Assembly (NCBI GenBank): GCA_037143085.1
Contig: JBAWZJ010000001.1
Coordinates: forward strand, 1-24,084
Origin: Parachlamydiaceae bacterium
Lineage (GTDB): Bacteria; Chlamydiota; Chlamydiia; Chlamydiales; Parachlamydiaceae
Reading direction: 5' to 3'
Length of the DNA: 24,084 bases
Both the position numbers and the translations under genes were made by a program. The notes beneath the pieces were generated by a model that saw only the letters and a program-made list of their open reading frames with translations, was not told the origin of the DNA and searched no databases. Positions 3,930-23,866 of this stretch are shown in pieces; positions within the stretch are counted from its first letter, which is position 1; each line of letters starts with the position of its first letter.

Positions 3930-3940
3930 AGTGTCTAAAA

Positions 3941-4283: not shown

Positions 4284-4322
4284 ACTAAAAATGTATATCA
4301 TCGGTATATATTGAACGAGCGC

Positions 4323-4574
4323 TTAAGCTCCGGTGACGATAGAGATGTATGTTCTATCACTCTTACGGAATGCTACAATACCATCTGCCAAAGCAAAAAG
4401 AGTATCATCAGACCCTCTACCAACATTTTTCGATGGGAGCCATCTAGTTCCTCGTTGTCTAACGAGAATGCTTCCGGCTGTAACAGCCTGTCCACATCCA
4501 ACTTTCATACCCAAACGTTTTGAATGAGAATCGCGACCGTTTCGTGTAGACCCTTGTCCTTTCTTATGTGCCAT
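4323..4574 (-). CDS. rpmA: 50S ribosomal protein L27
   Basis: [24 protein letters not shown]...[12 protein letters not shown]...[12 protein letters not shown]. Confidence 0.99.
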
Positions 4575-4585
4575 GCTGTCCTTCC

Positions 4586-4894
4586 TTAACTTGCAATTTC
4601 AGTAATTTTCACACGTGAGTAGTGCTGGCGATGGCCAATCTTCTTACGGTGATTTCCCGGAATATATTTAACACTTGTAATTTTCGGCCCTGCAGAATAG
4701 CCAACAAGCTCACCTGCAACAAAAGCCCCCGGAACGCTAGGTTTGCCCACAACAGCTTTTGAGCCGCTATTAACAAATAGCACTTCGGTAAATTTCACAT
4801 TGGAACCAACTTCTTCTTTAAGCAATTCCACATCGATCTCATCGCCAACAGCAACGCGATACTGTTTTCCACCTGTTTTAATAATGGCGTACAT
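4586..4894 (-). CDS. rplU: 50S ribosomal protein L21 (true start at 4894, not 5008)
   Basis: [14 protein letters not shown]...[14 protein letters not shown]; AGGGAG RBS upstream of ATG 4894. Confidence 0.97.
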
Positions 4895-5041
4895 TGTTCT
4901 CTCCCTTAAGAGTAAATTTCGGCTTGCTTTCCTGCAAATTTCCAGGTCGCAAAACCATTCGTTTTCATCAGAATCACCAAGGATAACGAATCGGCTGTTT
5001 GAAATCAACTGAAAAACTTGTCTTTTACAAAACCGCCTATT

Positions 5042-8000: not shown

Positions 8001-8104
8001 CTAATAGGTAAATTAATGTAGGCAAGTACACCTGCAAAAACAAGAGCAACAGCTAATAATGTTGTCATTATCGGTCGTAAAATAAACGGTGCTGACAAAT
8101 TCAT
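5042..8104 (-). CDS. RND efflux permease, MdtB/MdtC-like (paralog 2)
   Basis: 1020 aa; MNLSAPFILRPIMTTLL, YRKVNPA, GFIIDDAIVVLENI, GIVKKNGIMMVDFAL, RFRPIMMTT motifs. Confidence 0.96.
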   Translation of the reverse strand: MNLSAPFILRPIMTTLLAVALVFAGVLAYINLPISNMPDVTYPTINVSVSYPGATPETMAQAVALPLEKQFMAIPGVKFVGSNNTLGSSSIVLQFDIEKDMTIAAQDVQSAIITAQPTLPPQLPYAPTYRKVNPAELPIIYISLTSETMRLNDLYTYANNLIGQRISMLSGVSQVTVFGSPLAIRIQVDPARMVASDITLEELAIAMSLGNPNLPTGELDGAIEAPNVAVDGQIVTGEGWNQLIVAYRNGTPLRIKDLGQAVESFQNDKINVQYVDADGARPTILLAIQKEPNANTVAISDQIHALLDTLKTELPAAVTLKPFFDRSESIRETISDVNMTLILAIALVVVVIFLYFGKIADTIIPAVVLPISIVGTFIVMNYLGFTLNNLSLLGLILAVGFIIDDAIVVLENIVRHQEQGMSRFNAAIEGARQICFTIVSMTLSLVAVFIPMLLMSGLLGKILREFALTLTAITVISGIVSLSLAPMLCSRFLSVTQHKGKLTQWGDKVNLRMRERYRKMLIPVLDHEYMALFVGAACLLATIFLFYYLPIDFLPDEDDGFFIAYTQTQEAGSSYQLLEYEKQVMNIIKENPAVESSVAISSYSEYRKGQNLIRLKPLTKRLPIKEVIKELNQQIGKIPGIQVFMKNIPLIDLSTGQESRGDYQLAMQSIYPDKVYASAKKLISRMQGDPTFQGVNSDLEIDSPQINVNILRDQASSYGITATDIETAFMHSYSYNYVTRIETAIDQYDIILELLPEQQKSADTFNFLWMRSSISNKLVPMSAAAKWSEGLGPSSVNHIDQFPSVTIDFNLASGVSLGDGLDRLEELKQEVVEPGVLVQSIGAIETFQESISSAGILLLVSIFVIYIILGMLYESFIHPLTVLSTLPPATLGGLLVLLLFGLPLSMYAFLGIVLLIGIVKKNGIMMVDFALENIRSREMNSKDAIIDACMVRFRPIMMTTMAAIFGALPIAIGIGANAGARRPLGLVIIGGLLLSQLITLFITPVIYVMMDRLSPGKERG

Positions 8105-11100
8105 ATTTTCAAGGTTACCCTTTCGTTAATACGCTCCATAGCCAAGTAAATAATTGGCGTAACAAATAAAGTCACTAACTGAGAAAAAAGCAATCCTCCG
8201 ATAATCACCAATCCAAGTGGACTACGCGCAGAAGCATTAGCTCCCAAACCAAGTGCTATGGGCAAAACACCAAAAATTGCTGCTGCTGTCGTCATCATGA
8301 TTGGACGGAAACGAGCAGTGCACGCATCTAAAATGGCATTTTCAGGAGACATCCCTTTATGGCGAATATTGTCCAAGGCAAAGTCGACAACCATAATCCC
8401 ATTTTTCTTTACAATGCCTATCAGCAAGACTATCCCTAAGAAGGAATAAAGAGATAACGGCAAGCCAAAGATAAGTAAAGTCAAAAGTCCTCCAAATGTT
8501 GCTGGTGGCAATGTGGTCAATATTGTAATCGGGTGAATGTAACTTTCGTAGAGAATGCCCAAAATAATATAGATAGCGAAAATGGTCAATAGGAGTAAAT
8601 ATCCCGCACTTTTAATCGATTCATTAAACGTTTGAGCGGCGCCAATTGGACGCGCAGTGATGCCTGGCAAAACAACCTCTCCTGTAATTTTTTTAATTTT
8701 CTCAAGAGCTGTCTCTAAGGCCACCCCCGGCGCAAGATTAAATGAAACGACGACGGAAGGGAATTGGTTGATATGATTGACACTAGAGGCTCCTAATCCG
8801 ATATCTATGTCAATCGCTGCACTCAAAGGAACCAATTTATCCGATATTATGGAGCGGAGCCACACATTATTCAAAATATCCACCTGCCGTTGATATTCCG
8901 GATAAAGCTCCAAGATCACGTAGTATTGATCAATAGATGTTTGTATTTTCGAGATAAAATTTCCTGAAAAGCTATAGGAAAAAGCTTCTTCTATATTATT
9001 TGCCGTCAGCCCCAACGTCGATGCTTTGTCGCGTAAAATATTGATATTGACCTGAGGAGTCGTCACTTCCATATCACTATTGACTCCTTGAAAAATAGGA
9101 TCTTTCTTCATCTTCTCTATCAAATCCCCTGCCGATCGGTAAAGCTTATCTGCAGATAGTCCTTGCAAGGCAAATTGATATGCAGCCCTACTCTCTTGCC
9201 CTGTTGCCAGGTCTATCAAAGGGATGTTTTTGATAAAACCTTGCAAACCATCGATTTGTTGCATATCTTTATAAATCCCTTGTATCACCTGCTGCATCGG
9301 CTGCCTTTTATCTAAAGGTTTAAGATGAACAAGGTTTAATCCCTTCCGATATTCCGAATATGAGCTAATAGCCACTAACCTATCGACCGCCGGATTATTT
9401 CTAAGGACATGGGCTAATTTATTTTCGTTTTCCAACATACTATAAGACGATCCCCCCTCTCTCTCCTGTGTATAAATCACGAAGAAACCAAGATCTTCAT
9501 TCGGAACGAAATCGGTTGGGAGATAGGAAAGAAGCAACACAGTCGATAGTGTACACAACAGGGCGACGACGATGGCTGTCAAACGATGGTGAAGAACAGA
9601 GACGAGGGCTTTGCGATATTTTTTTTCCATCCATCCATTCAGTCGATTCGACCACTCAGAAGCCTTAGCCCCATTTTTTCGAGGCGGAATAAAACGACTG
9701 CAAAGCATTGGCGTCAATGTCAATGAAACTATTCCAGAAATCAAAGTAATTACCGTCAATGTGATAGCAAACTCCTTGAAAATTTTACCGATCAATCCTC
9801 CCATAAAAAGCATGGGAATAAATACAGCAATGAGGGAAAGGCTCATCGATACGATAGTAAAACAAATCTGACGAGACCCTTCCATTGACGCTTGAAAAGG
9901 AGTCTCTCCCGACTCTATACGTCTAATGATATTTTCTAACACCACAACGGCGTCATCAATAATGAATCCTACAGCCAAGGTTAACGCCAAAACAGAAAGG
10001 CTATCTAAAGTAAAATTAAGCACAAACATCACTATAAATGTGGCTATCACCGATGCCGGAAGTGCTAAAGAAGGAATAATCGTATCCCTGACTTTCCCCA
10101 AAAAAAAGAAAATCACCAATATGACAAGAAGTAACGAGACAACCAAAGTCTTCATTGCATCATCAATGGCTTCTCGAACAGCAATCGAGCGGTCAAATAC
10201 AATGTGAAGATCAATCGCCAGCGGAATCTCTGTTTTTATCGAATCTAAAAGCTTATAAATGTTATCAGCTATAGCAACAGTATTCGCATCCGGCGCCCGT
10301 TGTATCGCAAGAGTAACCGTAGGTTCGACCTCATCCCCTTCAATATATTGGGAATAAATCTTATTGTTTGCGAAATTGTCTATGGCACGCCCAAGATCGC
10401 GAATACGGACAGGTGAACCATTTCGGTAAGTCACAATCATTTGTTCGTAATCTGCACCTGTCATCAGTTGTCCATCGACAGACACTATAGGAGCCGCAAC
10501 ATCTCCATCAAGCTGCCCTGTAGCAATAAAGGCGTTCTGTAGTTTGATCATGTCAGCAAGCTCATTCAATGTGACATTATGGGTAACAAGTTTCCCCGGA
10601 TCAACTTGGACCCTAACAGCCAACAAAGAGCCAAATGTTGACACTTGAGAGACCCCTTCAATCATAGAGATCCGCTGCCCTATCACGGTATTACCATAAG
10701 TATAAAGGTCTGCACGCGACATGGTCTTTGAAGTCAGAGAAATGTAAATGATGGGCATTTCTGCAGGGTTAACTTTCCTGTATGTCGGACCAAAGGGAAG
10801 ATTCGGAGGCAAATAGGGAATCGCACTTGTAATTGCTTCTTGAACATCTTGAGCCGCTGTTGTCATGTCTTTGTCGATTTCAAACTGCAAAATAATGCTT
10901 GTATTTCCAAGAGTGCTATTTGAGCTTACAAGACGTAACCCTGGAATCCCCATAAACTGTTTTTCTAGAGGTAGAGCAACAGAATTGGCCATCGTTTGCG
11001 GTAAGGCTCCGGGAAACGAAGTTTTAACATTAATTGTCGGATAAGCAACATTTGGCATGCTGCTGATAGGCAAAGCATTATAAGCTAATATCCCAGCAAC

Positions 11101-11166
11101 AACCAATGCCAACATAGCCAAGGTGGTCATCACCGGACGTCGAATAAATGGAGCAGAGAGATTCAT
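8101..11166 (-). CDS. RND efflux permease, MdtB/MdtC-like (paralog 1)
   Basis: 1021 aa with the same RND motifs (IIDDAVVVLENI, GIVKKNG, RFRPIMMTT); 4-nt overlap with the downstream paralog. Confidence 0.96.
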   Translation of the reverse strand: MNLSAPFIRRPVMTTLAMLALVVAGILAYNALPISSMPNVAYPTINVKTSFPGALPQTMANSVALPLEKQFMGIPGLRLVSSNSTLGNTSIILQFEIDKDMTTAAQDVQEAITSAIPYLPPNLPFGPTYRKVNPAEMPIIYISLTSKTMSRADLYTYGNTVIGQRISMIEGVSQVSTFGSLLAVRVQVDPGKLVTHNVTLNELADMIKLQNAFIATGQLDGDVAAPIVSVDGQLMTGADYEQMIVTYRNGSPVRIRDLGRAIDNFANNKIYSQYIEGDEVEPTVTLAIQRAPDANTVAIADNIYKLLDSIKTEIPLAIDLHIVFDRSIAVREAIDDAMKTLVVSLLLVILVIFFFLGKVRDTIIPSLALPASVIATFIVMFVLNFTLDSLSVLALTLAVGFIIDDAVVVLENIIRRIESGETPFQASMEGSRQICFTIVSMSLSLIAVFIPMLFMGGLIGKIFKEFAITLTVITLISGIVSLTLTPMLCSRFIPPRKNGAKASEWSNRLNGWMEKKYRKALVSVLHHRLTAIVVALLCTLSTVLLLSYLPTDFVPNEDLGFFVIYTQEREGGSSYSMLENENKLAHVLRNNPAVDRLVAISSYSEYRKGLNLVHLKPLDKRQPMQQVIQGIYKDMQQIDGLQGFIKNIPLIDLATGQESRAAYQFALQGLSADKLYRSAGDLIEKMKKDPIFQGVNSDMEVTTPQVNINILRDKASTLGLTANNIEEAFSYSFSGNFISKIQTSIDQYYVILELYPEYQRQVDILNNVWLRSIISDKLVPLSAAIDIDIGLGASSVNHINQFPSVVVSFNLAPGVALETALEKIKKITGEVVLPGITARPIGAAQTFNESIKSAGYLLLLTIFAIYIILGILYESYIHPITILTTLPPATFGGLLTLLIFGLPLSLYSFLGIVLLIGIVKKNGIMVVDFALDNIRHKGMSPENAILDACTARFRPIMMTTAAAIFGVLPIALGLGANASARSPLGLVIIGGLLFSQLVTLFVTPIIYLAMERINERVTLKI

Positions 11167-12254
11167 TATTTTGAAGCCGGTGCGGTGATAACGATCATCC
11201 CCGGAGCAATGTTGATTTGACCATCAACGACAACGCTGTCGCCAACCTTCAAGTCTGGGGAAGCCACTGCTATATACGCTTCGGTACGAGTTAAAACATC
11301 AACATTATGCGCTGAAACTTTCTGTTCTCCATCCATTTTATAAAGGTACGCACCGTTTTTACCAATTAAAACGGCTCCGGGAGGTACGACAAGAGCCATT
11401 GGAGCGGTGGATTGCAACACCTTAACCTTAATAAATTCTCCGGGCCATAACACCCACTCCGAATTCGAACACCTTCCTTTTAAAAGGATTGTCCCTGTGT
11501 CCTGGTTCACCTGATTATCGATGAAATAAGTCTTTCCTTCGAACGGTATTTTAGGTTTTTCCGGCAAAACGGCAATAAAAGGCCATATTCCTTCATTTCC
11601 CTGTTTCAGACGAATGGCTTCAAACTGCTGCTGAGATAGCGAAAACATGATATCTATTGGATCAAACGGACGGATCACCGTGATCGCAGTTGGATCGTAT
11701 GCTGTGACCACATTTCCTGGATAAATATTGAAGTAGCTGATTTTTCCGGAAACGGGAGCAAGGACCTGGCAGAAATCGAGATTAATTTGAGCTGCAACAA
11801 TAGCAGCAATATCCAATTCGACTTGCGCCTGGGCAGCTTTGGCATTTCCTTCATACTGTTCCCATGTCAACTGCGAGATAAAATCTTCTTCGACAACGGT
11901 TTTATATCTCTTCACTGTGAGTTCAGCAACTTCCAATAAAGCCTGGTCATGGAGCAGCTGAGCTTTTGCTTCATCTAAAATAGCTTGATAAGGGCGCGGA
12001 TCGATCATATAAAGGAGATCGCCTTCCTTTACGATTGCCCCTTGCTCGACATAAGCTTTCAACAACTTTCCTTGCACTTGCGGACTGATAGCAACCTCTA
12101 CCGGAGGAATGACTTGTCCAATCGTGTCGATATAAACAGGAACGTCATACTGTTGCACAAGAGCTGTAGTCACATTTGGAGGATCATTTTTTGGTTTTGG
12201 CGATCCATGACATCCAGTCACCAACAATACAATTAAAACTAATACGAAATTCAT
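11166..12254 (-). CDS. RND periplasmic adaptor (MdtA-like membrane fusion lipoprotein)
   Basis: Lipobox LVTGC, lipoyl-like motifs QVQGKLLKAYVEQGAIVKEGDLLYMIDPRPY and APVSGKI, IDNQVNQDTGTILLKG, LWPGEF. Confidence 0.95.
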   Translation of the reverse strand: MNFVLVLIVLLVTGCHGSPKPKNDPPNVTTALVQQYDVPVYIDTIGQVIPPVEVAISPQVQGKLLKAYVEQGAIVKEGDLLYMIDPRPYQAILDEAKAQLLHDQALLEVAELTVKRYKTVVEEDFISQLTWEQYEGNAKAAQAQVELDIAAIVAAQINLDFCQVLAPVSGKISYFNIYPGNVVTAYDPTAITVIRPFDPIDIMFSLSQQQFEAIRLKQGNEGIWPFIAVLPEKPKIPFEGKTYFIDNQVNQDTGTILLKGRCSNSEWVLWPGEFIKVKVLQSTAPMALVVPPGAVLIGKNGAYLYKMDGEQKVSAHNVDVLTRTEAYIAVASPDLKVGDSVVVDGQINIAPGMIVITAPASK

Positions 12255-12257
12255 AAG

Positions 12258-13829
12258 TCAGCTCTCAGCTTTATCTTTAAAAGGAATATTAAATAATTCT
12301 TTAGGAGGCGTTTCTCTCCAGTGCCCTTTGGTCTCATCCAAAACACCAACGGAAAATGCTAGGTTAGCCAGTGAGGCAGCCCACTGGGTCCTTGTCACAA
12401 TAAGCTGAGCGCGGGCATTGCTCAGTGTTGTCAAGGCATTGAGAACATCAAGAATAGATGCCGTCCCCACCTTGTACTGAGATAAATAGCCTCTAAAGGC
12501 GCGCTCGCTAAACTCTAAATTAGCTATACTTGATGGCAATGCCGCAACAGCGGAGGTAAATGCATAGTAATTGGTCACAACTTCGCTAGCAACCGTCGAT
12601 AGCTGAACATCTAGATTAGCCAATGCCTCCTGCACCTGATTGCGCATCTGCTTGAGCTGGTTTTTGTAATAAAACCCTTGAAAGATTGGGACGTTTAAGT
12701 TGATGGAGATGTTGTTGTTATGCCCATCGGCAATGGGATTATGGATAAAATGCAATCGACTCCATTGCGCGTTGGTCGAGACTGTGGGCATTCCTGCAGA
12801 AAAAGAAATATCCCTCATCGCCTCTTGTTGTTTTACAACAGCTATCGCTGCACCGATATCCGGTCGTTTATGCTTGGCTACCTCTAAAAGATGATCCAAG
12901 TCGCCTGATATTTCAATTACAGGAAGTTGATCCGGTAGGCTTTCAACAGATAATTTTGTTTCTGGAGCTAACCCCACAGCAATTACTAGCTCCCCAAGAG
13001 ATGTTTTTTCTTCCCCTTGAGCGTAAATAAGGGTTGTCCGTGCTTGTTCAACAGCAGCTTGAGCTTGCAACACATCTGTCATTGTTGCCAAACCGGCATT
13101 TCGCATCGTCAAGGCTGCCTTCAGAGACATTTCAGCATCTTTCAGATTTTGTTCATCAGCGGCGACAAGAGCTTTATTTCCGTTATAACTTGTATAATAG
13201 TCCAACACATTCATCATTACCTGCTGCAATGTGAAATTGTGTTGCCAATTGGCTTGATAGAGTGTTTCCAATGCCAATGTTGCTTGTGCATCTCTACCGC
13301 CAAAATCGAACATCAACCAGCTGGCTGTCACCTCATTGAAATTTGTATCTATTTGACTGTTCCCCGATATAGCAGCAGTAGTCGGTCCCCTTGCTGTCGT
13401 TCCGGTATTTGAAAGAGCTGTAGCTTGAGTGGCGCTCGTCACTGTACTTCCGGAGCTAGCTCCAATGGTATCACTCTCTGCCGTTAACGTTGAAGTGAAG
13501 GCTATAGCCGGATAATATTCGCTTAAGGAAGTCCGGTAAGCATAGGCAGAAGCCCTGGCTGCATACCAACTTGAGCGTGTGGAAGGATTATTGAATAAAG
13601 CAATATCGAGCAATTTAGCGACAGATATTGTTGAGGAGAGATCTTCTGCAGTAAAGGGGCGTACAACAGTCTGCTTGGGGTAAGTGATCGACTTTCCTTT
13701 CCACTCAGATCCAGGAGAACTTGGAGCGTCACCACTAAAAGAAGGATCATAGGTAAACTCGTTACACCCCACCAACAAAGACAGCAAGAAGGCACTAAAA
13801 ATGGTGTATACCGAAAGCGATTGAAGCAT
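12258..13829 (-). CDS. TolC-family outer membrane efflux lipoprotein
   Basis: IALFNNPS, WLMFDFGG, RPDI, LNVPIFQG, YKVGTASILDVLNA motifs; lipobox LVGC 22 aa after ATG 13829. The ORF track extends to 13925, so the start is uncertain. Confidence 0.92.
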   Translation of the reverse strand: MLQSLSVYTIFSAFLLSLLVGCNEFTYDPSFSGDAPSSPGSEWKGKSITYPKQTVVRPFTAEDLSSTISVAKLLDIALFNNPSTRSSWYAARASAYAYRTSLSEYYPAIAFTSTLTAESDTIGASSGSTVTSATQATALSNTGTTARGPTTAAISGNSQIDTNFNEVTASWLMFDFGGRDAQATLALETLYQANWQHNFTLQQVMMNVLDYYTSYNGNKALVAADEQNLKDAEMSLKAALTMRNAGLATMTDVLQAQAAVEQARTTLIYAQGEEKTSLGELVIAVGLAPETKLSVESLPDQLPVIEISGDLDHLLEVAKHKRPDIGAAIAVVKQQEAMRDISFSAGMPTVSTNAQWSRLHFIHNPIADGHNNNISINLNVPIFQGFYYKNQLKQMRNQVQEALANLDVQLSTVASEVVTNYYAFTSAVAALPSSIANLEFSERAFRGYLSQYKVGTASILDVLNALTTLSNARAQLIVTRTQWAASLANLAFSVGVLDETKGHWRETPPKELFNIPFKDKAES

Positions 13830-14048
13830 TGAGTTTAGACTGACACAAAGTTTTTTACGATCGCATGATCGTAAATTTAACGCAGTCGAAATTTCAATTT
13901 TTGAACCTCGCTTGGTATAACTCATGAAATTTGTAATCCAGGTTAAAATATAACCGATCCTGGCATTGTAAAAAAATATTTACTAATATATCAAGAAATA
14001 TACTATTCATAGCTCAAAATGAGAATTTTGGCTAACGTCAAAGGTCTA

Positions 14049-16307
14049 CTAATCGAAATGGCACTCCGTATTCCCTGTGGTCGAACTGAAGGAACATCTT
14101 TGGTACCCGAATTTCGTCTTAAACAGAAAAAACTTATTGTTTTTTTGCATCTCCGCCCAGTATCGGTCACAGACATAATGTGTCGTTCGCAGCTTGATCA
14201 GTTTCTCATAGCCGTCACGAAAATAAAACAACACCTTTTCTGCCCCTTTTCTGTTGAGGAGATATGCTGAACAAGTTGTACATTCCTGATAAGATAGCAA
14301 AAGGAGGTCGTCGTATTCTTTTATTTCGTGATATTTGCTTGAATTCAGCAAACAAACTTCATAATCGTACTGTCTATCGAAAAACAGTTTCAACCTCTTT
14401 AAATTACCTTCTATATCAGCTGTAAATGTAACGTCATCTTCTAAAATTAGACACGTCTGATGGATCCCTTTCAAAAAGTCTTCGACCATATTCCCATGAT
14501 TTTTTGTACAACTCGCATGGGCATCAAAAGATTTATCACCAGTGATAGACTCTCTTTTAACCTTATAATGACAAATTCGATTTAACGGAGCCCTCACCCG
14601 ACAAAGTTCAGAGAGTATCTCCATGTAACGGTCAACTCTTTCCTCCAAATTCAAAATATAAACAACCCCTATGGATTCCCAAGCTGGATCATATTCAAAT
14701 TTGGAATGCTTCAGGTCTTTAAAATATAAAGGATGACGCCAAATTTTATTGCTATAGGGTAAGTTGTTGTGTGCATGGTGATAGTTTCCATAAACGATAA
14801 CCAATTCATTATCTTTCGGTTCTCTAAGAGGGTCTGTCGTCGCAATAATTTGCCGACCTGTCTCCCTTAGTTTATCTATCAAACCATTGCTATGTTCAAT
14901 AATCGATTCATCAACAAGAAGGCAATCGAAATATTGATATAGCTGACACGCCTCTTCTATCTTATTTTGAGAAACTAATTCGTTAATCGATGAGAGGAGT
15001 TGTTCTCTATTTAAGACCCTGAAATCATCAACGCTTATACCATCATCAGAATTATTTAGAGCTGTTGCTAAAGGAGAGTAAGACAACACAGAGAAAAGCG
15101 TTATTAACATGAAGAAAAACATAGCAAATCGATCTGAGATCATATATCGAAACCTTTTAATAGTGATACGGAACAAAAGTAAAGGTAACTGCCAGAGACT
15201 GGCGAGATTAAATTCATTCGCCAGTGTCGTCGGATAGGTAAAAAACTGCAAAAGCAATGAACTGGAAGGATACAGTCGACGATGCGCGCACCAAATCCTT
15301 TTAAAATGCCATAAAATCACACTTTTTGGTTCTATAGTCATGTATTTTTCCTTTGTCACAACTGCATATTCGAAATGTTCAAATTGCGAAAATGGAATCT
15401 TTTGCAAATCTTCTAAAACTGATGCAGGAATGTGAATATCACATTCTTTTTGTAGAAACTCAAGACTTTTGAAAAGGCGCAAGCTAACCTCCCGCTTTTT
15501 TGCCTCCTCTAACAGGGAAGGCCAAAGGATCTGATCTCCTGCTTTTTTCACGATCATATGCGCATCGACAATCCAGCGCATTGGATGCAAAAGATTCCAC
15601 CGATATCCATGCATACATGTGTGGAACAAATGATCGGTATGTGAAAGGGTCAATGTCGGTTGGGACCTAAACATCAAAGGAACAGCCCGCTGCCAAAACA
15701 CCCCATCATCACAATATTCAGGAAAAAGACGCCAGTGCAAATCGAGTTCATACCCTTTGGGATCGACAAATGTACAAGCGTGTGAGGACTGCTTATAATT
15801 TTTCTTCAAAGGCATTGTTTTAACAACATGTGCATGAGAATGAGCTTTAATCTGCCATCCGTTTTCCAGCAACAAATCTATAGCTTCATCAACACGGTCA
15901 AGAGGGATCAAAACATCACCATCAACCATGGCACGAGTATAGGGATCAGGATAATACACATAACTTAGTGCCACCCCTTTTAGCAATATTGTAGGAATAT
16001 TTTTTGCATGAAGAACTCCTAAAACACGCTCTACAGAGTGGAATAACATTTGGTTGCAGAATAAATTCCTTTTATAAATCCCTTTGAGTTTTTGCATATC
16101 AGGATCGTCCGCAGAAGCGCGCTGTAACGTATAGTAAAGCATCGGCAAAAGACGAAAAACAGAATCATCGATACTCTCTAAATTAGATTCCTTTTTCCAT
16201 TCACCCCAGGCAGCAGCAACGTTTGGAGACTCAGACAAACAGATTTTTATCAGTTCCAACTGTTTCTGAGTGGGTAGGCATCCGCCGATGTTTTCTGTGA
16301 TATGCAT
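14049..16307 (-). CDS. Nucleotidyltransferase (NTP_transf_5-like) fused via a hydrophobic segment to a GT25-like glycosyltransferase domain
   Basis: N-half ILLKGVAL..R-M-D-DVLI, ELDLHWRL, HTCMHG..RWIVD. C-half VYILNLEERVDR, SCTKNH, LILEDDVTF, AYLLNRKGAEK. Confidence 0.85.
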   Translation of the reverse strand: MHITENIGGCLPTQKQLELIKICLSESPNVAAAWGEWKKESNLESIDDSVFRLLPMLYYTLQRASADDPDMQKLKGIYKRNLFCNQMLFHSVERVLGVLHAKNIPTILLKGVALSYVYYPDPYTRAMVDGDVLIPLDRVDEAIDLLLENGWQIKAHSHAHVVKTMPLKKNYKQSSHACTFVDPKGYELDLHWRLFPEYCDDGVFWQRAVPLMFRSQPTLTLSHTDHLFHTCMHGYRWNLLHPMRWIVDAHMIVKKAGDQILWPSLLEEAKKREVSLRLFKSLEFLQKECDIHIPASVLEDLQKIPFSQFEHFEYAVVTKEKYMTIEPKSVILWHFKRIWCAHRRLYPSSSLLLQFFTYPTTLANEFNLASLWQLPLLLFRITIKRFRYMISDRFAMFFFMLITLFSVLSYSPLATALNNSDDGISVDDFRVLNREQLLSSINELVSQNKIEEACQLYQYFDCLLVDESIIEHSNGLIDKLRETGRQIIATTDPLREPKDNELVIVYGNYHHAHNNLPYSNKIWRHPLYFKDLKHSKFEYDPAWESIGVVYILNLEERVDRYMEILSELCRVRAPLNRICHYKVKRESITGDKSFDAHASCTKNHGNMVEDFLKGIHQTCLILEDDVTFTADIEGNLKRLKLFFDRQYDYEVCLLNSSKYHEIKEYDDLLLLSYQECTTCSAYLLNRKGAEKVLFYFRDGYEKLIKLRTTHYVCDRYWAEMQKNNKFFLFKTKFGYQRCSFSSTTGNTECHFD

Positions 16308-16308
16308 T

Positions 16309-16995
16309 TTATACTTTTCGCCTGCGATCTAACATTGCTTTAACAACATGTAAATACTCATACCGTTGATGTTTTAACTGTATCCCCATGTTGTTACCAT
16401 GAATGCGACGTCGAGCAAGCACATCTTTAATCAACAGACTTTTGCACCCTTTATCTTTAGCCCTGCCATACCAATCAAGAAATTCTCCAATTTCAATATG
16501 GGTTGGGAAATTTCCAGCGTGCAAGAGAGCCTCTTTCCGGATCATTAAGGTGGAAGCACAATAACCTGCCATCACTTGTCCATCCCCTTTTATTCGTTTT
16601 TTACGCTCCTCATCCAGTTCAGAACTTATGAATTGTTCTATCATAGTAAAAACCATCGAAACATCAGGATATAGCAACAAAGTTTCCAATTGCTTTTCAA
16701 GCTTTAAAGGATGCCATAGATCGTCTCCGTCAAGGAACGTCACCACATCACCACGAGCGAGGGCAATTCCTGCATTTCGTGCAGCCCCTAACCTCTGGTT
16801 CGTTTGATAGTGATAGATTAATTTATCGCCGTAAGATCTAGCAATATTTCCTGTATTATCAGTAGAGCCGTCATCAACAACGATCAATTCGAAATTTTTC
16901 CATGTTTGCGCAAGCACGCTTTCAATCGTATCGGCTAAATATGCCTGGCTATTGTAAGCATTAATAATCACGCCCACTAAACTGTCATTTTTCAT
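16309..16995 (-). CDS. GT2 (GT-A fold) glycosyltransferase
   Basis: VIINAYN, IVVDDGSTD, ARNAGI, FLDGDD, RRRIH motifs. Confidence 0.95.
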   Translation of the reverse strand: MKNDSLVGVIINAYNSQAYLADTIESVLAQTWKNFELIVVDDGSTDNTGNIARSYGDKLIYHYQTNQRLGAARNAGIALARGDVVTFLDGDDLWHPLKLEKQLETLLLYPDVSMVFTMIEQFISSELDEERKKRIKGDGQVMAGYCASTLMIRKEALLHAGNFPTHIEIGEFLDWYGRAKDKGCKSLLIKDVLARRRIHGNNMGIQLKHQRYEYLHVVKAMLDRRRKV

Positions 16996-17692
16996 GCATT
17001 AGCCCTTCTCGTTGCCTTACTATCGATTTTCTAATTATATGCAAAAGATCACGATGCAAGGGAACAACGTTAGCCGATTCATTAGCATTATGTATGCGTT
17101 TGTAAAACAAAATATCGGGCATGTGCCCTACCGGAATTTTCATATCTTTGGCAGTAAAAAACCAAGCCGAATCGTCACCTCCGCTCCGATACTGTTCGTC
17201 AAAGAATCCCACCTTATTAAACACACTCCTACGTCCAAGCAATGTGCCTAGCAAATAACCAGCATGGTCTCCTTCCAGCCTCTCCGGGTTAAGCCAGCTT
17301 GGACAAGACATTCCTGATTGAACAAATAACTTTTGCCTACATAATACGTAATCGATATTTTGATTCATTTCGAGATAAAAGACTTGTTTCGATGTTTTAT
17401 CCGCAGTCCAGATATCATCCTGATCAAGAAAAGTGATAAACTCCCCTTTTGCGTTTCTCAACCCTACATTTCTCGCAACGGCCACACCTCTATTCTTTTG
17501 CACAATCAGTGTAACCTTATCCTTAAACTTAGATACAATATCAAGACTTGTATCCGTTGATCCATCGTCTATTAAAAGGATTTCCATTGGGTTATAATCT
17601 TGTGCAAACACACTCTGAAGAGTTTCTTCTAGATAAGCCGCTCCATTATAAATAGGTATAATAACACTGACAAGCGGTCTATTTAGCATCAT
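16985..17692 (-). CDS. GT2 (GT-A fold) glycosyltransferase
   Basis: VSVIIPIYNG, IDDGSTD, ARNVGL, FLDQDD, KRIH. GGAG RBS before tandem ATGs at 17692/17689. Confidence 0.95.
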   Translation of the reverse strand: MMLNRPLVSVIIPIYNGAAYLEETLQSVFAQDYNPMEILLIDDGSTDTSLDIVSKFKDKVTLIVQKNRGVAVARNVGLRNAKGEFITFLDQDDIWTADKTSKQVFYLEMNQNIDYVLCRQKLFVQSGMSCPSWLNPERLEGDHAGYLLGTLLGRRSVFNKVGFFDEQYRSGGDDSAWFFTAKDMKIPVGHMPDILFYKRIHNANESANVVPLHRDLLHIIRKSIVRQREGLMHEK

Positions 17693-18410
17693 CAAACTCC
17701 GAAAGAGGTACAAGATTTAAGGCTTTACCCTGATTCATCAATTGACGGCGATTGATGGATCGCTTCAAGGCTGAAAAAAATGTGAGATCGTAATGGTTAT
17801 TCTCTCTAGTCATATTTGAAGAATGTTGTTGATAGAGGAGATTGATTTCTTTCATAATCGCAATTTTAATTCCAGACTCACGAACGCGGAAAAACCAATC
17901 AAGATCCTCAGCAAATCGTAGCGATTCGTCAAAAAGACCCACTTTATCAAAAACTTCTTTGTGAACTAATAGAGCTCCCAAATTGACATTTAAAAGTCCG
18001 TTCTCTTCGCCGTGATGAATAGGCATATTTTTTGCCCCTTTTAGCCTGATATATTTTATACGACCTGTCACAATCTTAAGCGAACTATCAGACCTCAACC
18101 TGGCCAATTGCAACGCAAGTTTATCATCCGGCCATTCGTCATCCGCATCCAGAAAAGCGATGATGTCGCCTTTTGCCTGTTTAATTCCAAAATTTCGCGC
18201 AGCAGCAGGTCCTTTGTTATTTTGTCTAAGGAAAATGATATCTTTGCCTAAAGTTTTAACTCGTTCTCCGATATTGTCGCTTGACCCATCATCAATTAAA
18301 ATAATCTCTAAAAAAGGGTAATTCTGCCTTCTTATACTTTTAAGGGCTTCTTCGATGAACTGACCTGCATTAAAATAAGGGATGATGACACTAATACTCC
18401 ATTCAGCCAT
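17679..18410 (-). CDS. GT2 (GT-A fold) glycosyltransferase
   Basis: ISVIIPYFN, IDDGSSD, ARNFGI, FLDADD, EDLDW. ATG 18410 overlaps the kinase stop (translational coupling). Confidence 0.95.
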   Translation of the reverse strand: MAEWSISVIIPYFNAGQFIEEALKSIRRQNYPFLEIILIDDGSSDNIGERVKTLGKDIIFLRQNNKGPAAARNFGIKQAKGDIIAFLDADDEWPDDKLALQLARLRSDSSLKIVTGRIKYIRLKGAKNMPIHHGEENGLLNVNLGALLVHKEVFDKVGLFDESLRFAEDLDWFFRVRESGIKIAIMKEINLLYQQHSSNMTRENNHYDLTFFSALKRSINRRQLMNQGKALNLVPLSEFDDAK

Positions 18411-19479
18411 TAGAACGCTCCAAGAAATCAGCAATAAGATAAGGAATTTGCTCCACATCTGTACCTAGGTCTAGCCAAAAATTAGGGACAGATGTTGTAA
18501 GTAAGCGCATTTTATCAAAAGCTATCTTACCATCCCCCTCAAGATGCAACACCGTTGTTGGAGCAAGCGCCAACAACGATTCGGCGCTACTGGCTTGTCG
18601 AATCCTGGAATTTTTTTGGTGAGTCACACGCGGCAAAAATATAGCCTTAATTGGGAATCCTGCAGAGAGCTTCTCTGGAAAATGTTCATTCAGAAAAAAC
18701 AAAGCTTTTTCGCTAGACAAACTCTCTTTATTGCTAATTTTTTCAGATAGATGAGGCAGCATGTTTACACTATTAGGAACGAGCTTTCCAGTATTATAAA
18801 GGCTATAGACAAAAGGAATTGGTTCATTAGAAATCATCACATAATCATCACCCACATACTTCAAACCTGACCGAACACAGCTGAGGGCTGTTGTCGATTT
18901 TCCCGATCCACTTTTCCCCGTTAATAAAATTCCCCCTTTATCGAAGCCTACAGCCCCCGCGTGGACTAGCTGGAAAGGACGGAGCTTGCTCCACCAGTGA
19001 ATGATACAACGCATCGGGAAACTCATCTCCCAATAAGGCAGTATTCTCGGATGTTGCATCCAATAGATTCCGAGCCGACGACGGTTGTTGTACATGTGCA
19101 AGATAGAGTTATCAGGATTATAAACAGTTCGTATGACCTCATTGTTAAAGCCTTGAATATGCCCCCTTGGACCGTAAGCTGTCATCAGCCATGGAGGTGG
19201 AGGCATGGGAGTATCTGTAGAGTCGCAGTCCCAACAATTAATAGTTAATGAAGGGAGACAAGGAGGAAGTTCAAGATGAGAAAACGCCATGGATAGCGAT
19301 TTTAGCAGAGCTTCACCTGCAAACCTCAAACAAAGAACCTCGGATCCCAACCGGTAATAACGGCGTATATCTGCAGAGTTTGACACCGCCTTTTCGAAAG
19401 CAATTTCCACTTCCTCAAAATAGCCTTCGGGACGTCGAGTAGCTGGCAGAACAAATTCCGCTATTTGCAGGGTTTCCAT
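18403..19479 (-). CDS. HPr kinase-like serine kinase
   Basis: LVHAGAV...GILLTGKSGSGKSTTAL...YVGDDYV, the HprK-type His / Walker A / DD arrangement. GAAGGTG RBS before ATG 19479. Confidence 0.9.
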   Translation of the reverse strand: METLQIAEFVLPATRRPEGYFEEVEIAFEKAVSNSADIRRYYRLGSEVLCLRFAGEALLKSLSMAFSHLELPPCLPSLTINCWDCDSTDTPMPPPPWLMTAYGPRGHIQGFNNEVIRTVYNPDNSILHMYNNRRRLGIYWMQHPRILPYWEMSFPMRCIIHWWSKLRPFQLVHAGAVGFDKGGILLTGKSGSGKSTTALSCVRSGLKYVGDDYVMISNEPIPFVYSLYNTGKLVPNSVNMLPHLSEKISNKESLSSEKALFFLNEHFPEKLSAGFPIKAIFLPRVTHQKNSRIRQASSAESLLALAPTTVLHLEGDGKIAFDKMRLLTTSVPNFWLDLGTDVEQIPYLIADFLERSNG

Positions 19480-19487
19480 AAACACCT

Positions 19488-19928
19488 TCAAAATTTTTCT
19501 AGAGTGTTCTGAGCAAAATGAGGCCACCCCTGTTCACTGATTTCATGAATGGGGTCGAGCAATAACAGCTCTTGCATATCGTTAAAAACAGTCAATTCTG
19601 GAGGATTGTAAACCATCTCTTTTGACTCTACCATTACCTGTTCTTTCACAGGTAAAGTCTCAACCGAAATAATGAGTTGTTCTTCTAAAAGATGGTCTAA
19701 AAAAACCTTCAAAGAAGCTTTAGCGGTCTCAGAAGATATCGAGAACTGTTCGCTCATAATCGCAGTTATTTGTTCCTCATTGAATCCATTTTGGATAAGC
19801 TGCCAGAGATAAGCTCCAGAGTCATTCATTGAATAATAATTCCCGTGTTCTAGATTGATAACGACAGCTTCGCCGTCGATAACTTCGTGAATTACGTTGA
19901 GATGGCTAATGTAATATCTTGAAGACAT
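19488..19928 (-). CDS. PqqD-family RiPP recognition element with C-terminal peptide extension (146 aa)
   Basis: VIHEVIDGEAVVINLEHGNYYSMNDSGAYLWQLI...FLDHLLEEQLI is a typical RRE pattern. AAAGGA RBS before ATG 19928; the track start at 20120 is an over-extension overlapping the divergent gene. Confidence 0.9.
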   Translation of the reverse strand: MSSRYYISHLNVIHEVIDGEAVVINLEHGNYYSMNDSGAYLWQLIQNGFNEEQITAIMSEQFSISSETAKASLKVFLDHLLEEQLIISVETLPVKEQVMVESKEMVYNPPELTVFNDMQELLLLDPIHEISEQGWPHFAQNTLEKF

Positions 19929-20030
19929 AAGATGATATCCTTTAAACATAAAGAGGTTTATGACTGGAAATCTAACAAAAGAATATTTTACATGTAAAGT
20001 CGTAAAATTTTGACTGCAAAAGGAATTTCG

Positions 20031-21038
20031 ATGGTTTTTAAAAAGGAAAAAGGACGTATCTTTTATTTCTGTCCAGATTCTGCTATTCCCTCCGGGGGCA
20101 TAAAAAAGATCTATCAACATGTCGATCTACTAAACGAGCTGGGATTTTCAGCATTTGTTGTGCACAACAAACCCGGATTCCGCTGTTCCTGGTTCGATAA
20201 TACAACGCCGATAGCCTATTTGTATAAGGTTGAAAAATCCCTACTTATTCTTGGTCCAGGAAAACAGCAAAAACAACTAGACGCACTTTCTTCAGAAGAT
20301 ATTCTTGTTTATCCTGAAGTCACCCCAGAAAAAACAATACAACAGGTGATGGATTTAGGATTTTACACAGTTATTTTCAACCAAAACGCTTATTATACGT
20401 TCCTAGCCTCCTCCTCTATTTACAAAGGCGAAAATGTCTTAGGAGCAATCGTGGTCTCAGAAGACAGCAAGAAGTATCTAGAGTACACTCTACCCTCTCT
20501 CAGCACTTTCCGGATTCATATATCTATTGATTTCAACATTTTCTCTTTTCAAGTAGCGAAGAAAAAACAGATTGCCTATATGCCACGTAAATGTGAAAGC
20601 GATTCCCATCAGATTATTAGCATATTAAATGAGCGTGGTCTGTTAAAAGATTGGAAGGTCGTGCCAATTGATAATATGTCTGAAAGAGAAGTCGCCCATA
20701 TTCTTAAAGAAAGCGCTATTTTCCTCAGTTTTTCTCATGCAGAAGGGTTTGGTTTGCCTCCGGTAGAGGCTATTTCATGCGGATGTCTTGTCATCGGCTA
20801 TCACGGAGGCGGAGGGAGAGAATATTTCCAAGGAGATTCGATTTTTCCCATCGTTCAAGGAGAAATCATCGAGTATGTCAAAACTGTTGAAAAAGTTACC
20901 CTTAATTACAATCAGGAAGCGACACATTACGCTGAAGCAACAGCATTGGCGAGCATCCTGATTCAAAATATTTACTCGCTCAAAAAAGAAAAAGAGGACT
21001 TAAAAAACGCCTGGGAATCGATTTTATACCGAAAATAA
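20031..21038 (+). CDS. GT4-like (GT-B fold) glycosyltransferase, divergent from the PqqD gene
   Basis: PSGGIKKIYQHVDLLN, IAYMPRK, EGFGLPPVEAISCGCLVIGYHGGGG. AAAGGA RBS before ATG 20031. Confidence 0.92.
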   Translation: MVFKKEKGRIFYFCPDSAIPSGGIKKIYQHVDLLNELGFSAFVVHNKPGFRCSWFDNTTPIAYLYKVEKSLLILGPGKQQKQLDALSSEDILVYPEVTPEKTIQQVMDLGFYTVIFNQNAYYTFLASSSIYKGENVLGAIVVSEDSKKYLEYTLPSLSTFRIHISIDFNIFSFQVAKKKQIAYMPRKCESDSHQIISILNERGLLKDWKVVPIDNMSEREVAHILKESAIFLSFSHAEGFGLPPVEAISCGCLVIGYHGGGGREYFQGDSIFPIVQGEIIEYVKTVEKVTLNYNQEATHYAEATALASILIQNIYSLKKEKEDLKNAWESILYRK

Positions 21039-21302: not shown

Positions 21303-21394
21303 TAGAGCTTTTGCATAATTCAAGGTTTGTTGCTTTTCAGGATTATTTCGAAAGAACCCGAAAAGCGACAGAACCTGAATATGTAAGAGGTCTA
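21303..21394. repeat. Palindromic MITE-like element, family B (short copy 2, degenerate)
   Basis: tagagcttttgcataattcaagg...aacctgaatatgtaagaggtcta; imperfect full-length hairpin. Its terminal CTA coincides with the TAG stop of the YVTN gene. Confidence 0.75.
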
Positions 21395-22621
21395 TTGTAA
21401 AGACACACTTATAGAAGGGCTTTCAGTACCATTGGAGTTGAACGATGTGATGGAATAGACTGTCAGTACATTTTTTTGCTGATTGTGCTGGATGTACTGC
21501 AATGTCGAAGCACTCACACTGGCAATTTTGGTGTTATTTTTATAAATGTTATATCCAACGACTCCTGAAGAGGAGCTTGGCCCCCATTGAATAGTATTAT
21601 AAAATTCTGTCTGTGAGAGAAATTGGCGTTTCTTTTGGGTGCCGTTCAAATAGGTTGGGGGCAATAGATTTGTTGGAGTTATAGCCATTCCCTGAGGAGC
21701 ATTTCCGACTCCAGTTTCACCAACAACGGTATGGGTAGCAGTTTCAATCTCTTCAACACTATTGTCATCACTGTCGGCTACATAAGCAAAGCTACTGTCA
21801 TCTGTAAAAACAACACTGAAAGGAGAATTTCCTACTGATATGACATCTGTAACAGTATTCGTATCAGTATCGATAACAGAAACAGTATTATCCTCCTGAT
21901 TGGGAACATAAACTAAATGAAGTGTTGGAGCAGCTGCCAAATAGCGAGGATTGTTGCCTACAGAAACTGTTGTTAAGACAGTCCTTGTCGTAGTATCAAT
22001 GACGGAGACGGTAGCATCAGATAAATTAGAAACGTAAGCGAAGCTGCCATCAGGAATTATGGTGATACCAAAAGGAGAAGTGCCAACAGAAATGGAGCCT
22101 ACAACGGTATTATTTGCTGTATTAATAACAGAAACAGAATTGAAAGAGGTGTTGTTATTAGTCACGTAAGCGTAGCTGCCGTTAGGAGTTACTGCTATGG
22201 ATACAGGCCATGTACCGACTGTAACTGTAGTTGTGACAGTGTAAGTTGTTGTATCAATGACAGCAACAGTATTGCTTCCATTATTAGCGACATAGGCAAA
22301 GTTACCATTGGGCGTAAAGGCGATCCCTAAAGGTCCTGATAAAAGACCCGAAGAAATTGTGTTCACTACGTTGTTATTGGCGGTATTGATCACAGAAATT
22401 GTATTATCAAAGTAACTCGGAACATAGGCGTAGCTACCATCAGGAGTAATGGCAACAGTTCCAGGTTCAGTCCCCACAGTGACAGTGGCAATCACATTAT
22501 TGGTATCGGTGTCTATAACCGATACGGTATCCTCGCCTGCATTTGCAACGTACACGCTATTTGCAAAACATTGACTCAATGAGAGACAAAACACTATAGT
22601 TAATAGTGGGGTAAGCTTCAT
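21392..22621 (-). CDS. Secreted YVTN/YncE-type beta-propeller protein with C-terminal FN3-like domain
   Basis: Signal peptide, about seven repeats of ~42 aa (YV.N....VSVIDT.T..V..TV.VG..P..IA.TP.G), then IQWGPSSSSGVVGYNIYKN. Confidence 0.92.
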   Translation of the reverse strand: MKLTPLLTIVFCLSLSQCFANSVYVANAGEDTVSVIDTDTNNVIATVTVGTEPGTVAITPDGSYAYVPSYFDNTISVINTANNNVVNTISSGLLSGPLGIAFTPNGNFAYVANNGSNTVAVIDTTTYTVTTTVTVGTWPVSIAVTPNGSYAYVTNNNTSFNSVSVINTANNTVVGSISVGTSPFGITIIPDGSFAYVSNLSDATVSVIDTTTRTVLTTVSVGNNPRYLAAAPTLHLVYVPNQEDNTVSVIDTDTNTVTDVISVGNSPFSVVFTDDSSFAYVADSDDNSVEEIETATHTVVGETGVGNAPQGMAITPTNLLPPTYLNGTQKKRQFLSQTEFYNTIQWGPSSSSGVVGYNIYKNNTKIASVSASTLQYIQHNQQKNVLTVYSITSFNSNGTESPSISVSLQ

Positions 22622-22909: not shown

Positions 22910-23866
22910 ATGATAAATATCTTTAGAAAAAAATATTTAATTTTGGCAGCTACAGTGATCATGAGCATAAGTCAAGGCTTCTTATCCGCAACTCCCGCTT
23001 GCGAGAATGGTTCTGCGGATGAATGTGAGTGTGATGAACAATCTGAAAATTCATGGATAAGCGGCGATTTATTATATTGGAGAACCCGTGAGGACGGTTT
23101 TGGATGTGCTTTTGGCTCAACAGAAATTGAAACAGCAGTCAGCAACGGGATGGTTGTTACAGATATCAGCGAAAGAGATGGGGATATTGATTTTGATTGG
23201 GAATTAGGTTTCAGCTTAGGGGTTGGACATGACTTTGACTGCAGTTGCTGGGGCACCTCTGTATATTGGACCCATTTTAATGAAGCTGGAAGGGGCCATG
23301 ATTGTAATAACCATGCGAAATGGAAATTAAGATTCGACGAAGTTGACGCTGTGTGGGGGTACAAATTGAATTGCGGTTCCTTTTTCGGCTTTAGGCCATT
23401 TTTTGGAGCTCGTTATGCGCAAATTAATCAAAGTCTGTCGACCCATTTAGTAACGGAAATTCTAGATTCTTCAACAGGCGAAAGCTCCATTGTTGTATCG
23501 ATAAAAAAAGGCGACGAATATTTTTGGGGTGCAGGTCCATTATTGGGATTTGAAGCAGAATTTTCCTTAGGATGCGGTTTTAGTGTGTATGGAGATCTTG
23601 CGGGCGCTTTTTTGTATGGTAATTTCAAGGACAAATTTTATGACAGCGATCTTTTTACAACCACGGTCAATAATTGCCATTCTATAAAAAACACTCGCAA
23701 CGTCCTAACATGTTTTGATGCTGGATTGGGTGTGCGCTATGAATGGTGCCGCGTGGCTTTTCAATTAGGTTTGGAGCATCATAGTTATTTCAATTTCAAT
23801 CACATAGGCTGCTGCGCCGATTTGAATTTATATGGGGTCAACGCCTCGGCAATTGTGCGTTTTTAG
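22910..23866 (+). CDS. Cysteine-rich outer membrane beta-barrel, Lpg1974/MOMP-like porin
   Basis: Signal peptide, DLLYWR, DFDWELGFSLGVG, FWGAGPLLG, alternating beta-strand pattern, C-terminal Phe, 14 Cys. Confidence 0.8.
   Translation: MINIFRKKYLILAATVIMSISQGFLSATPACENGSADECECDEQSENSWISGDLLYWRTREDGFGCAFGSTEIETAVSNGMVVTDISERDGDIDFDWELGFSLGVGHDFDCSCWGTSVYWTHFNEAGRGHDCNNHAKWKLRFDEVDAVWGYKLNCGSFFGFRPFFGARYAQINQSLSTHLVTEILDSSTGESSIVVSIKKGDEYFWGAGPLLGFEAEFSLGCGFSVYGDLAGAFLYGNFKDKFYDSDLFTTTVNNCHSIKNTRNVLTCFDAGLGVRYEWCRVAFQLGLEHHSYFNFNHIGCCADLNLYGVNASAIVRF

Follow-up and report, generated by a model that had tools for sequence, protein, structure and literature searches.

What is made by a gene set that joins the recognition-element, kinase and nucleotidyltransferase families of phosphorylated lasso peptide clusters to several glycosyltransferases, in a stretch of DNA that carries no lasso core enzymes? 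The question is raised by positions 14,049 to 21,038 of a 24,084-nucleotide (nt) stretch of a Parachlamydiaceae bacterium, called the window below, which is the entire contig C1 (JBAWZJ010000001.1) of a 433-contig assembly (GCA_037143085.1; 2.3 Mb, 89.5% complete, 0.29% contamination). We find that this locus is one copy of a gene cassette present in several phyla, and that the cassette is related by evolution to the enzymes responsible for phosphorylation and glycosylation of lasso peptides of the paeninodin/pseudomycoidin type and of the linear LPP peptides. [quoted passage not shown]

A conserved cassette without lasso core enzymes

The open reading frame (ORF) listing and the Pfam assignments place six minus-strand genes in a tight co-directional array. 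It begins with a PqqD-type RRE protein of 146 amino acids (aa) (19488..19928; PF05402, E 1.2e-15), followed by an HprK-like P-loop kinase of 358 aa with a two-domain fold like that of phosphoenolpyruvate carboxykinase (PEPCK) (18403..19479; Hpr_kinase_C, E 1.1e-7, and the P-loop). Next come three family 2 glycosyltransferases (GT2), all matching PF00535: the first (17679..18410; 243 aa from the ATG at 18410; E 1.7e-34) has both the family D and the DxDD motif intact, and DxDD is also intact in the second (16985..17692; about 235 aa from the ATG at 17692; E 3.1e-32) and the third (16309..16995; 228 aa; E 6.8e-35). The array closes with a 752-aa fusion, of which residues ~1–390 form a PsmN-type nucleotidyltransferase (NTase) domain (15138..16307; PF14907 NTP_transf_5, E 2.7e-46). 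With the likeliest start codons, the successive junctions measure +8, -8, -14, -11 and +1 nt, and a divergent GT4-like gene starts at 20031, across a gap of 102 nt from the RRE start at 19928. An earlier, preliminary description of this DNA had proposed this gene set, order and spacing, and Pfam confirms the domains that it named. It had also reported no lasso cyclase, B2 peptidase, ATP-binding cassette (ABC) exporter or separate precursor in the window; Pfam assigns none of the first three to a window gene, and the intergenic gaps, of only 102 and 123 nt, leave no room for a precursor ORF. The same holds for the core enzymes in the rest of the genome, 89.5% complete, which gave zero matches to the transglutaminase-like B2 peptidase (PF13471) and, for the cyclase (PF00733), only a sub-threshold match of 18.9 bits on contig C3.

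A scan of genome contigs with the single kinase returned one locus only, and a wider survey of genomes and metagenomes was used. Neighbourhoods were fetched by the kinase alone and are hence blind to the other genes; the neighbouring ORFs were then classified with profiles built from the window proteins. The sample took in a Planktothrix genome, an alphaproteobacterial metagenome-assembled genome (MAG), a metagenome contig, a Chloroflexia MAG, ten other genomes of the window's phylum and 80 metagenome loci, so that the 95 loci span Chlamydiota, cyanobacteria, Chloroflexi, the alphaproteobacterial MAG and metagenomes. A core quartet of RRE, kinase, GT2 or GT4, and NTase occurs in 15/15 genome-derived loci and in most of the 80 metagenome loci. 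The RRE gene lies directly upstream of the kinase in 60 of 68 loci, and a glycosyltransferase (GT) directly downstream of it in 53 of 58. Among loci with enough flank, the NTase is present in 26 of 27, GT4 genes in 11 of 27 and an MsbA-like ABC exporter in 8 of 27 (17 loci overall); stand-alone GT25, sulfotransferase and sugar epimerase genes are sporadic. On the strength of these counts the invariant core consists of the RRE, kinase and NTase plus one or more GT2 or GT4 enzymes. The clustering of these genes is far beyond chance, and the co-occurrence of homologs that the preliminary description had made its test is found across phyla. The window locus shows every feature that defines the family: an RRE of about 140–160 aa with a [YF]xxPxL..LLxLDPxH..GWP end, directly upstream of the kinase, together with one or more GT2 or GT4 genes and a PF14907 NTase. 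Relatives of the kinase number more than 1,000 in 90% clusters, and at E ≤ 1e-30 clustering at 50% identity gives 2,929 representatives.

This conservation speaks to the possibility that the locus is a non-functional remnant of a lasso or LPP cluster that has lost its cyclase, peptidase and precursor. As a remnant would, the window lacks the lasso core enzymes, and it has neither a peptidase nor an ABC exporter, but the same reduced gene set persists in thousands of clusters from different phyla, no reading frame is broken and the catalytic motifs are retained, the genes are translationally coupled, and the same genome holds an independent second copy. Decay, already disfavoured, is highly improbable.

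An RRE fused to a leader-type tail

Cassette RREs are about 136–160 aa long, versus about 85–95 aa in ordinary B1 proteins. Their alignment reveals a PqqD domain, then a variable linker, then a tail of fixed length; in the window protein the RRE domain covers residues ~1–90, followed by the linker and the conserved C-terminal tail. The tail motif spans residues 107–136 (19521..19610, minus strand) and reads Y-N-P-P-E-L, then F-x-D-M-x-x-L-L-L-L-D-P-I-H-E, then G-W-P. Across the family the consensus is [YF]xxPxL-x-x-[YF]-x-[DE]-M-x-x-L-L-x-L-D-P-[IV]-H-[ED]-V-...-G-W-P, followed by 2–16 variable residues. DPxH and GWP are present in all 79 RRE relatives (79/79) and [YFW]xxPx[LVIFAM] in 74/79, and D125, P126 and H128 are invariant in 77/77 distinct tails.

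The best match in a profile search with the RRE was TbiB1 (5v1u, E 1.7e-17). The AlphaFold2 (AF2) model of the protein (pLDDT 85.8) was likewise placed by Foldseek on TbiB1 (5v1v; target-normalised TM 0.91), and other close solved relatives are PbaB1 (9x90) and LppB (9x8z, E 1.9e-6). The nearest solved relatives of the domain are lasso B1 proteins whose structures include [Y/W]xxP leaders. The pairing of a B1-type RRE with a [Y/W]xxPxL leader, as in lasso clusters, is thus found in the cassette too, but here the motif, YNPPEL, lies in cis. In the AF2 model, residues 101–120 are confident (pLDDT 82–90), with a strand at residues 112–115 directly after YNPPEL. The strand mirrors the register of the PbaA leader residues -9 to -7, which extend the RRE sheet in PbaB1–PbaA (PMC13381572). 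From the model confidence and secondary structure we infer that YNPPEL, and by extension the [YF]xxPxL motif in the tail of cassette RREs, binds the groove of its own RRE in cis.

The kinase and its modelled complex with the RRE

In the kinase, H173, the Walker A sequence G188-x-x-G-x-G-K-S195 and D212 are invariant in 31 homologs, and the spacing of His173, P-loop and Asp212 is, we presume, that of the HprK/P catalytic residues. The P-loop region matches HprK/P (1jb1, E 1.4e-5). The HprK/P catalytic domain is PEPCK-like; the resemblance in the cassette kinase is wider, as its full-length AF2 model (pLDDT 93.8 for the kinase alone) superposes on PEPCK across both domains and not just over the HprK catalytic domain (Foldseek E 2e-10; query-normalised TM up to 0.58).

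Modelled together, the RRE and the kinase gave ipSAE values of 0.82, 0.82 and 0.80, the best control reaching 0.01; 58/80 solved complexes and 2/110 mismatched pairs reach that mark, a calibration that holds only roughly for custom alignments. On the RRE side, the modelled interface comprises strands 13–33, tail-helix residues 115, 117–118 and 121–122, and residues 133–138 around GWP; on the kinase side it comprises the N-terminal domain at 92–142, P-loop residues 189–190 and C-terminal helices 297–329. Since the whole kinase is PEPCK-like, this interface places the tail in the inter-domain cleft, the substrate site of such kinases. In the model, the distal tail of the RRE is docked on the kinase.

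These predictions combine into the mechanism that we somewhat favour. The [YF]xxPxL motif would occupy the RRE groove, and the distal tail, made of an amphipathic helix, D-P-x-H and G-W-P, would enter the cleft of the HprK/PEPCK-fold kinase to form an RRE–kinase complex. Within this complex an acceptor would be held, on which the kinase, the PsmN-like NTase and a variable set of GT2, GT4 or GT25 enzymes might subsequently assemble a phosphate-linked sugar decoration. That acceptor would most likely be the RRE's own tail, which would explain why there is no separate precursor gene. Export may be served by the MsbA-like ABC exporter in many copies, and in this genome perhaps by an adjacent resistance-nodulation-division (RND) efflux set. 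Precedent for the chemistry supports the mechanism by analogy: PsmK polyphosphorylates the C-terminal Ser of pseudomycoidin, with PsmN required for the hexose on the phosphate (PMC6993621), and LppK polyphosphorylates a Ser (PMC13381572).

The acceptor: tail, glycan or separate peptide

Several observations weigh against this mechanism. In the model of the RRE alone, tail residues 121–146 have low confidence (pLDDT 55–62), and the complex score is the model's own confidence, obtained with custom alignments. Across the 77 distinct tails, Ser, Thr or Tyr is not invariant at any position, so a classical hydroxyl phospho-acceptor on the tail is not conserved. Position 116 comes nearest, with Ser/Thr in 63/77 tails, and is Asn in the window RRE and Ala in the genome's second copy on contig C35; the stretch after GWP has no Ser/Thr in 31/77. 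The cassettes contain no conserved peptidase, none being among the conserved neighbours in the 95 loci, which leaves the release of a small exported peptide unexplained. The RND link is seen at two loci of one genome. The preliminary description had envisaged a phosphate-linked glycan on a peptide; in its simple form, phospho-Ser formation followed by glycosylation, conservation gives it no support. Position-by-position conservation of the 77 tails led us to reject a Ser/Thr acceptor as a conserved feature, and Thr113, Ser131 and Thr142, which had been put forward as candidate acceptors, are none of them conserved.

What is invariant is an Asp. Asp125 lies at +18 from the motif aromatic residue Y107, and in LppA the offset from Tyr-16 to the polyphosphorylated Ser3 is also +18 (PMC13381572), so that both residues occupy the same register relative to the motif. 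Asp125 could serve as an acceptor, could mimic a phosphorylated residue and turn the tail into a pseudo-substrate, or could belong to a cleavage site. A more specific version of events, which we regard as unlikely, has the RRE act as substrate or scaffold in its own right: a RiPP-like pathway would unite the recognition element with leader and core in one polypeptide, the core being conserved like that of a cofactor precursor and not variable like that of an antibiotic. Asp125, followed by Pro, would be the site of chemistry, either through carboxylate phosphorylation, by a kinase with relatives that already add phosphoryl groups to an anionic phosphate, and NTase- and GT-dependent sugar addition, or through Asp-Pro cleavage that releases a short conserved peptide for export.

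The lack of an acceptor hydroxyl also lends itself to another explanation, possible though on the whole doubtful: the tailed RRE may be a mere adaptor or pseudo-substrate subunit of the kinase, and the acceptor a non-peptide such as a sugar, a lipid-linked glycan or a polysaccharide, so that the cassette would be a specialised glycan or glycolipid pathway with borrowed RiPP-type parts. This explanation accounts for a tail with no invariant hydroxyl residue and with an invariant Asp at the place of the LPP phospho-Ser (PMC13381572), and for the lack of a conserved peptidase. The variable GT sets, including sulfotransferases and sugar epimerases, are as in glycan loci; MsbA-like exporters are generally known to flip lipids too; the kinase, over its full length, has a fold similar to that of PEPCK, which is a kinase of small molecules; and LPP and paeninodin clusters are located in capsule loci (PMC13381572). 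However, the hallmarks of a polysaccharide locus, namely an initiating phosphoglycosyl transferase with a flippase and a polymerase, or an ABC-2 transporter, are missing from the window and its recurrent neighbours: no initiating phosphoglycosyl transferase, Wzx or Wzy is found among the window's assigned genes or the recurrent neighbour clusters. Moreover, all characterised RiPP-cluster relatives of the kinase phosphorylate a peptide Ser (PMC6993621, PMC13381572), and glycan pathways are not known to make use of an RRE fold that has a leader-type motif bound to it.

Alternatively, the target of the cassette could be encoded elsewhere in the genome, as a distinct peptide or protein bearing a [YF]xxP leader, with the cis tail serving a regulatory role or being displaced. 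LPP and lasso systems do use separate precursors (PMC13381572), and a genome only 89.5% complete could hide one. The survey and the genome argue otherwise: no small conserved ORF accompanies the cassette in the 95 loci, where the best cluster of small ORFs beside it is an 80-aa ORF on the opposite strand in 3 loci; the DPxH..GWP motif occurs in this genome only in the two cassette RREs and in no other ORF; and a motif fused in cis would outcompete a ligand in trans. An adjacent precursor in particular was rejected, as the 102- and 123-nt gaps are too short to contain one and no small ORF recurs. We hold a precursor in trans to be quite improbable, and self-docking of the tailed RRE on its kinase stays the model that we prefer.

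Nucleotidyltransferase, glycosyltransferases and fusions

Conserved residues of the NTase domain include K110-G111, D129-x-D131 and D189-x-H191, and D129-x-D131 resembles the DxD pair that PsmN needs (PMC6993621). In other loci, stand-alone NTase homologs of 340–440 aa end the cassette. Some cassettes carry two PF14907 NTase genes: L003 (Planktothrix), L060, L067, L072 and L076.

In the window the NTase is joined in-frame to a hydrophobic linker and a C-terminal module (residues ~391–752; 14049..15137, minus strand). The last ~330 residues of the fusion score 20.7–23 bits against PF01755, versus a cut-off of 24, and for this reason we call the module only GT25-like. The C-terminal part of protein P0122 is 62% identical to the module and is joined there to a GT4-type domain; identity to part of P0124 is 44%. 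In 3 other loci, true GT25 genes belong to the cassette as genes of their own. Elsewhere, the module is joined to other N-terminal domains (P0122–P0125). The junction between NTase and module (residues ~385–420) is a hydrophobic stretch like a signal peptide or membrane helix, with an internal Met; P0121, called as a gene in a different sample, has its start at Met323, and one protein or two are both possible. The divergent GT4-like gene (20031..21038, plus strand; 335 aa, GT-B) matches PF00534 (Glycos_transf_1, E 3.3e-10) at residues 220–300 only, in its C-terminal half. Neither the nearest relative, L006, nor the genome's second cassette has a homolog of it at this place, and between the genome's two cassettes the accessory GTs show no homology. 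We accordingly class both the GT4-like gene and the GT25-like module as variable accessories and not as conserved members.

Kinase–GT2 fusions of ~570–620 aa, in both domain orders, were observed in the metagenome loci L059, L087, L088 and L092 and in P0068, P0277, P0279, P0330, P0362 and P0386, with longer multi-domain forms in P0320 (941 aa) and P0350 (854 aa). At L108:81-2156, a 691-aa ORF contains two RRE-like domains and then the kinase, and starts with the ...GWP end of the upstream RRE; we gave no weight to it as a multi-RRE–kinase fusion, read-through of a lost stop codon being the other possibility.

The enzyme labels of the preliminary description fared unevenly: the NTase is secure, GT25 has to be softened as above, and the GT4 label applies to a match in half of the protein. 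Its wider proposal, that the trio of RRE, kinase and NTase had been redeployed with five GT domains, stands as far as the functional tie of the trio to GTs apart from lasso enzymes is concerned, through co-occurrence and the kinase–GT2 fusions, and fails for the five GT domains as a unit, two of them being accessory.

A second copy and the efflux neighbourhood

The genome holds a second, very divergent cassette on contig C35 (L021:3922-9370), whose kinase is only 25% identical to that of the window. Its minus-strand genes encode an NTase (L021 8051-9370), the kinase (7026-8099), an RRE-like protein ending ...ADPIHDV..GWPVL (6591-7016) and a GT2 (5893-6606). Two unrelated divergent GT genes adjoin them: one of the Glyco_trans_1_2 type (4851-5858) and one that is TOD1/MUCI70-like (3922-4854).

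Both cassettes adjoin an efflux set made of an outer-membrane OEP gene, a membrane-fusion protein (MFP) and AcrB-type RND pumps (window 5042-13925; L021:2-3633). According to Pfam, the window set, 123 nt downstream of the cassette, consists of OEP (12258-13925), the MFP (11166-12254) and two RND pumps (8101-11166 and 5042-8104), all on the minus strand; two RND genes are also what MdtABC-type pumps have. None of the other 94 loci has an OEP/MFP/RND neighbour (0 of 94), and many carry the MsbA-like ABC exporter instead. A general link between the cassette and RND efflux was rejected, the arrangement being seen in this genome only; the adjacency may reflect an export route particular to this lineage, or chance.

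On its other side the window cassette is flanked by a gene for a YVTN/lactonase-type seven-bladed beta-propeller (21392-22621, minus strand) and one for a Legionella_OMP-family porin (22910-23866, plus strand). A 276-aa ORF at 1422-2252 (plus strand), downstream of rho, has no Pfam family. A scan of the window for promoters and terminators gave counts not above those of shuffled controls. The PADLOC models of anti-phage defence matched 0/7 cassette proteins, and a reading of the locus as a defence system was rejected on this ground.

Distribution in the phylum and significance

The Rho protein encoded in the window is 88–89% identical to Parachlamydiaceae and Candidatus Protochlamydia proteins, which identifies the genome as chlamydial. 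The preliminary description was right to suspect such a host; it had called the pathway unexpected there, and the cassette is not unique to this genome in its phylum: the kinase occurs in 11/300 sampled genomes of the phylum, this one counted, and in 0/31 others of the same family. In a FastTree phylogeny of 86 kinases, the copies of the phylum fall in at least 4 places, the window copy and the metagenome contig L006 standing beside the alphaproteobacterial MAG. The pattern suggests repeated horizontal acquisition of the cassette in the phylum, the tree being indicative only, with support values left aside.

If the proposed mechanism is right, thousands of bacterial lineages, among them cyanobacteria, soil phyla and intracellular chlamydiae, hold phospho-glycosylation machinery of the peptide type that does without a free precursor. 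Standard RiPP mining, which looks for small precursor genes, would overlook it for that reason. A natural RRE fused to its own ligand would also be informative on how RREs hand substrates over to enzymes. In chlamydia-like endosymbionts, two separately acquired copies, each beside an outer-membrane efflux set, hint at a surface or secreted glycoconjugate, maybe relevant inside amoebae. What the window adds is a chlamydial host with two divergent copies, each by an RND set, and an NTase fused to a GT25-like module, along with the +18 register of Asp125, the position-by-position lack of a conserved hydroxyl acceptor, the PEPCK-like two-domain fold and the complex model.

Comparison with known systems

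Among open-access papers we found none that describes a tailed-RRE cassette; only the LPP and lasso tailoring papers were retrieved. The preliminary description had treated RRE, kinase and NTase as the tailoring trio of phosphorylated lasso clusters. This is accurate for the kinase and NTase of pseudomycoidin; the RRE is a core lasso part and not a tailoring one, and the paeninodin cluster of P. dendritiformis has no NTase gene (PMC6993621). With paeninodin/pseudomycoidin tailoring (PadeK/PsmK, PsmN), the cassette shares the HprK-like kinase, PF14907 NTase and B1-type RRE families. It differs in that the window and the genome yielded neither a cyclase nor a B2 peptidase nor a core peptide, that it has dedicated GT2 and GT4 enzymes, and that the substrate Ser of the lasso peptides is C-terminal, whereas no such Ser is conserved in the cassette.

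An HprK-like P-loop kinase together with a PqqD-family protein outside lasso clusters is also a feature of the HprK-related kinases A/B and of SynChlorMet (ScmC/ScmD). The cassette kinase nevertheless scores only 25.4 and 36.8 bits against the kinase A/B models (TIGR04352, TIGR04355), where the cut-off is 200. ScmD is matched at 26.8 bits versus a cut-off of 100, and the radical SAM partners ScmE/ScmF are missing, with no radical SAM gene in the window. The resemblance to HprK/P extends over the P-loop region, and that to PEPCK over the whole-protein fold; unlike HprK/P, the cassette kinase has no HPr or phosphotransferase system context, its N-terminal domain is unrelated in sequence, and its partner is the RRE tail.

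A trio without lasso core enzymes has already been published, as the LPP clusters lppA-K-B-S-D-N of Bacillota, which have no cyclase and often lie in GT-rich capsule loci (Popov et al., Nat Commun 2026, PMC13381572). Of the published systems, LPP stands nearest to the cassette. In both, a discrete lasso-type RRE occurs with an HprK-like kinase and a PF14907 NTP-transferase, a macrolactam cyclase is lacking, and the genes sit among glycosyltransferases. The LPP leader motif YxxPx[VL] compares with [YF]xxPxL in the cassette, and the offset of +18 from the Tyr to the modified residue (Y-16 to Ser3) equals that from Y107 to D125. The MsbA-like exporter, LppD in LPP, is found at 17 loci among the cassette relatives and is absent from the window. 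The two systems part ways at the precursor and its processing. The cassette has no SpI-like leader peptidase: LppS, a signal peptidase I (SpI) of the archaeal type, corresponds to no cassette gene and to no conserved neighbour in the 95 loci, the genome having been searched with no dedicated SpI hidden Markov model. LPP has a separate precursor (YxxPxVLxHQxIxFETxxS, phospho-Ser3) and the cassette none; its motif is fused to the RRE and continues as LLxLDPxH..GWP, not HQxIxFETxxS, with Asp in place of Ser at +18. The cassette RRE also matches LppB (9x8z) less well than it does TbiB1, GT2 genes are fixed members and GTs are obligatory in the cassette, and the cassette spans many phyla whereas LPP is confined to Bacillota, so that the proposed mechanism, if true, would extend LPP chemistry beyond that phylum.

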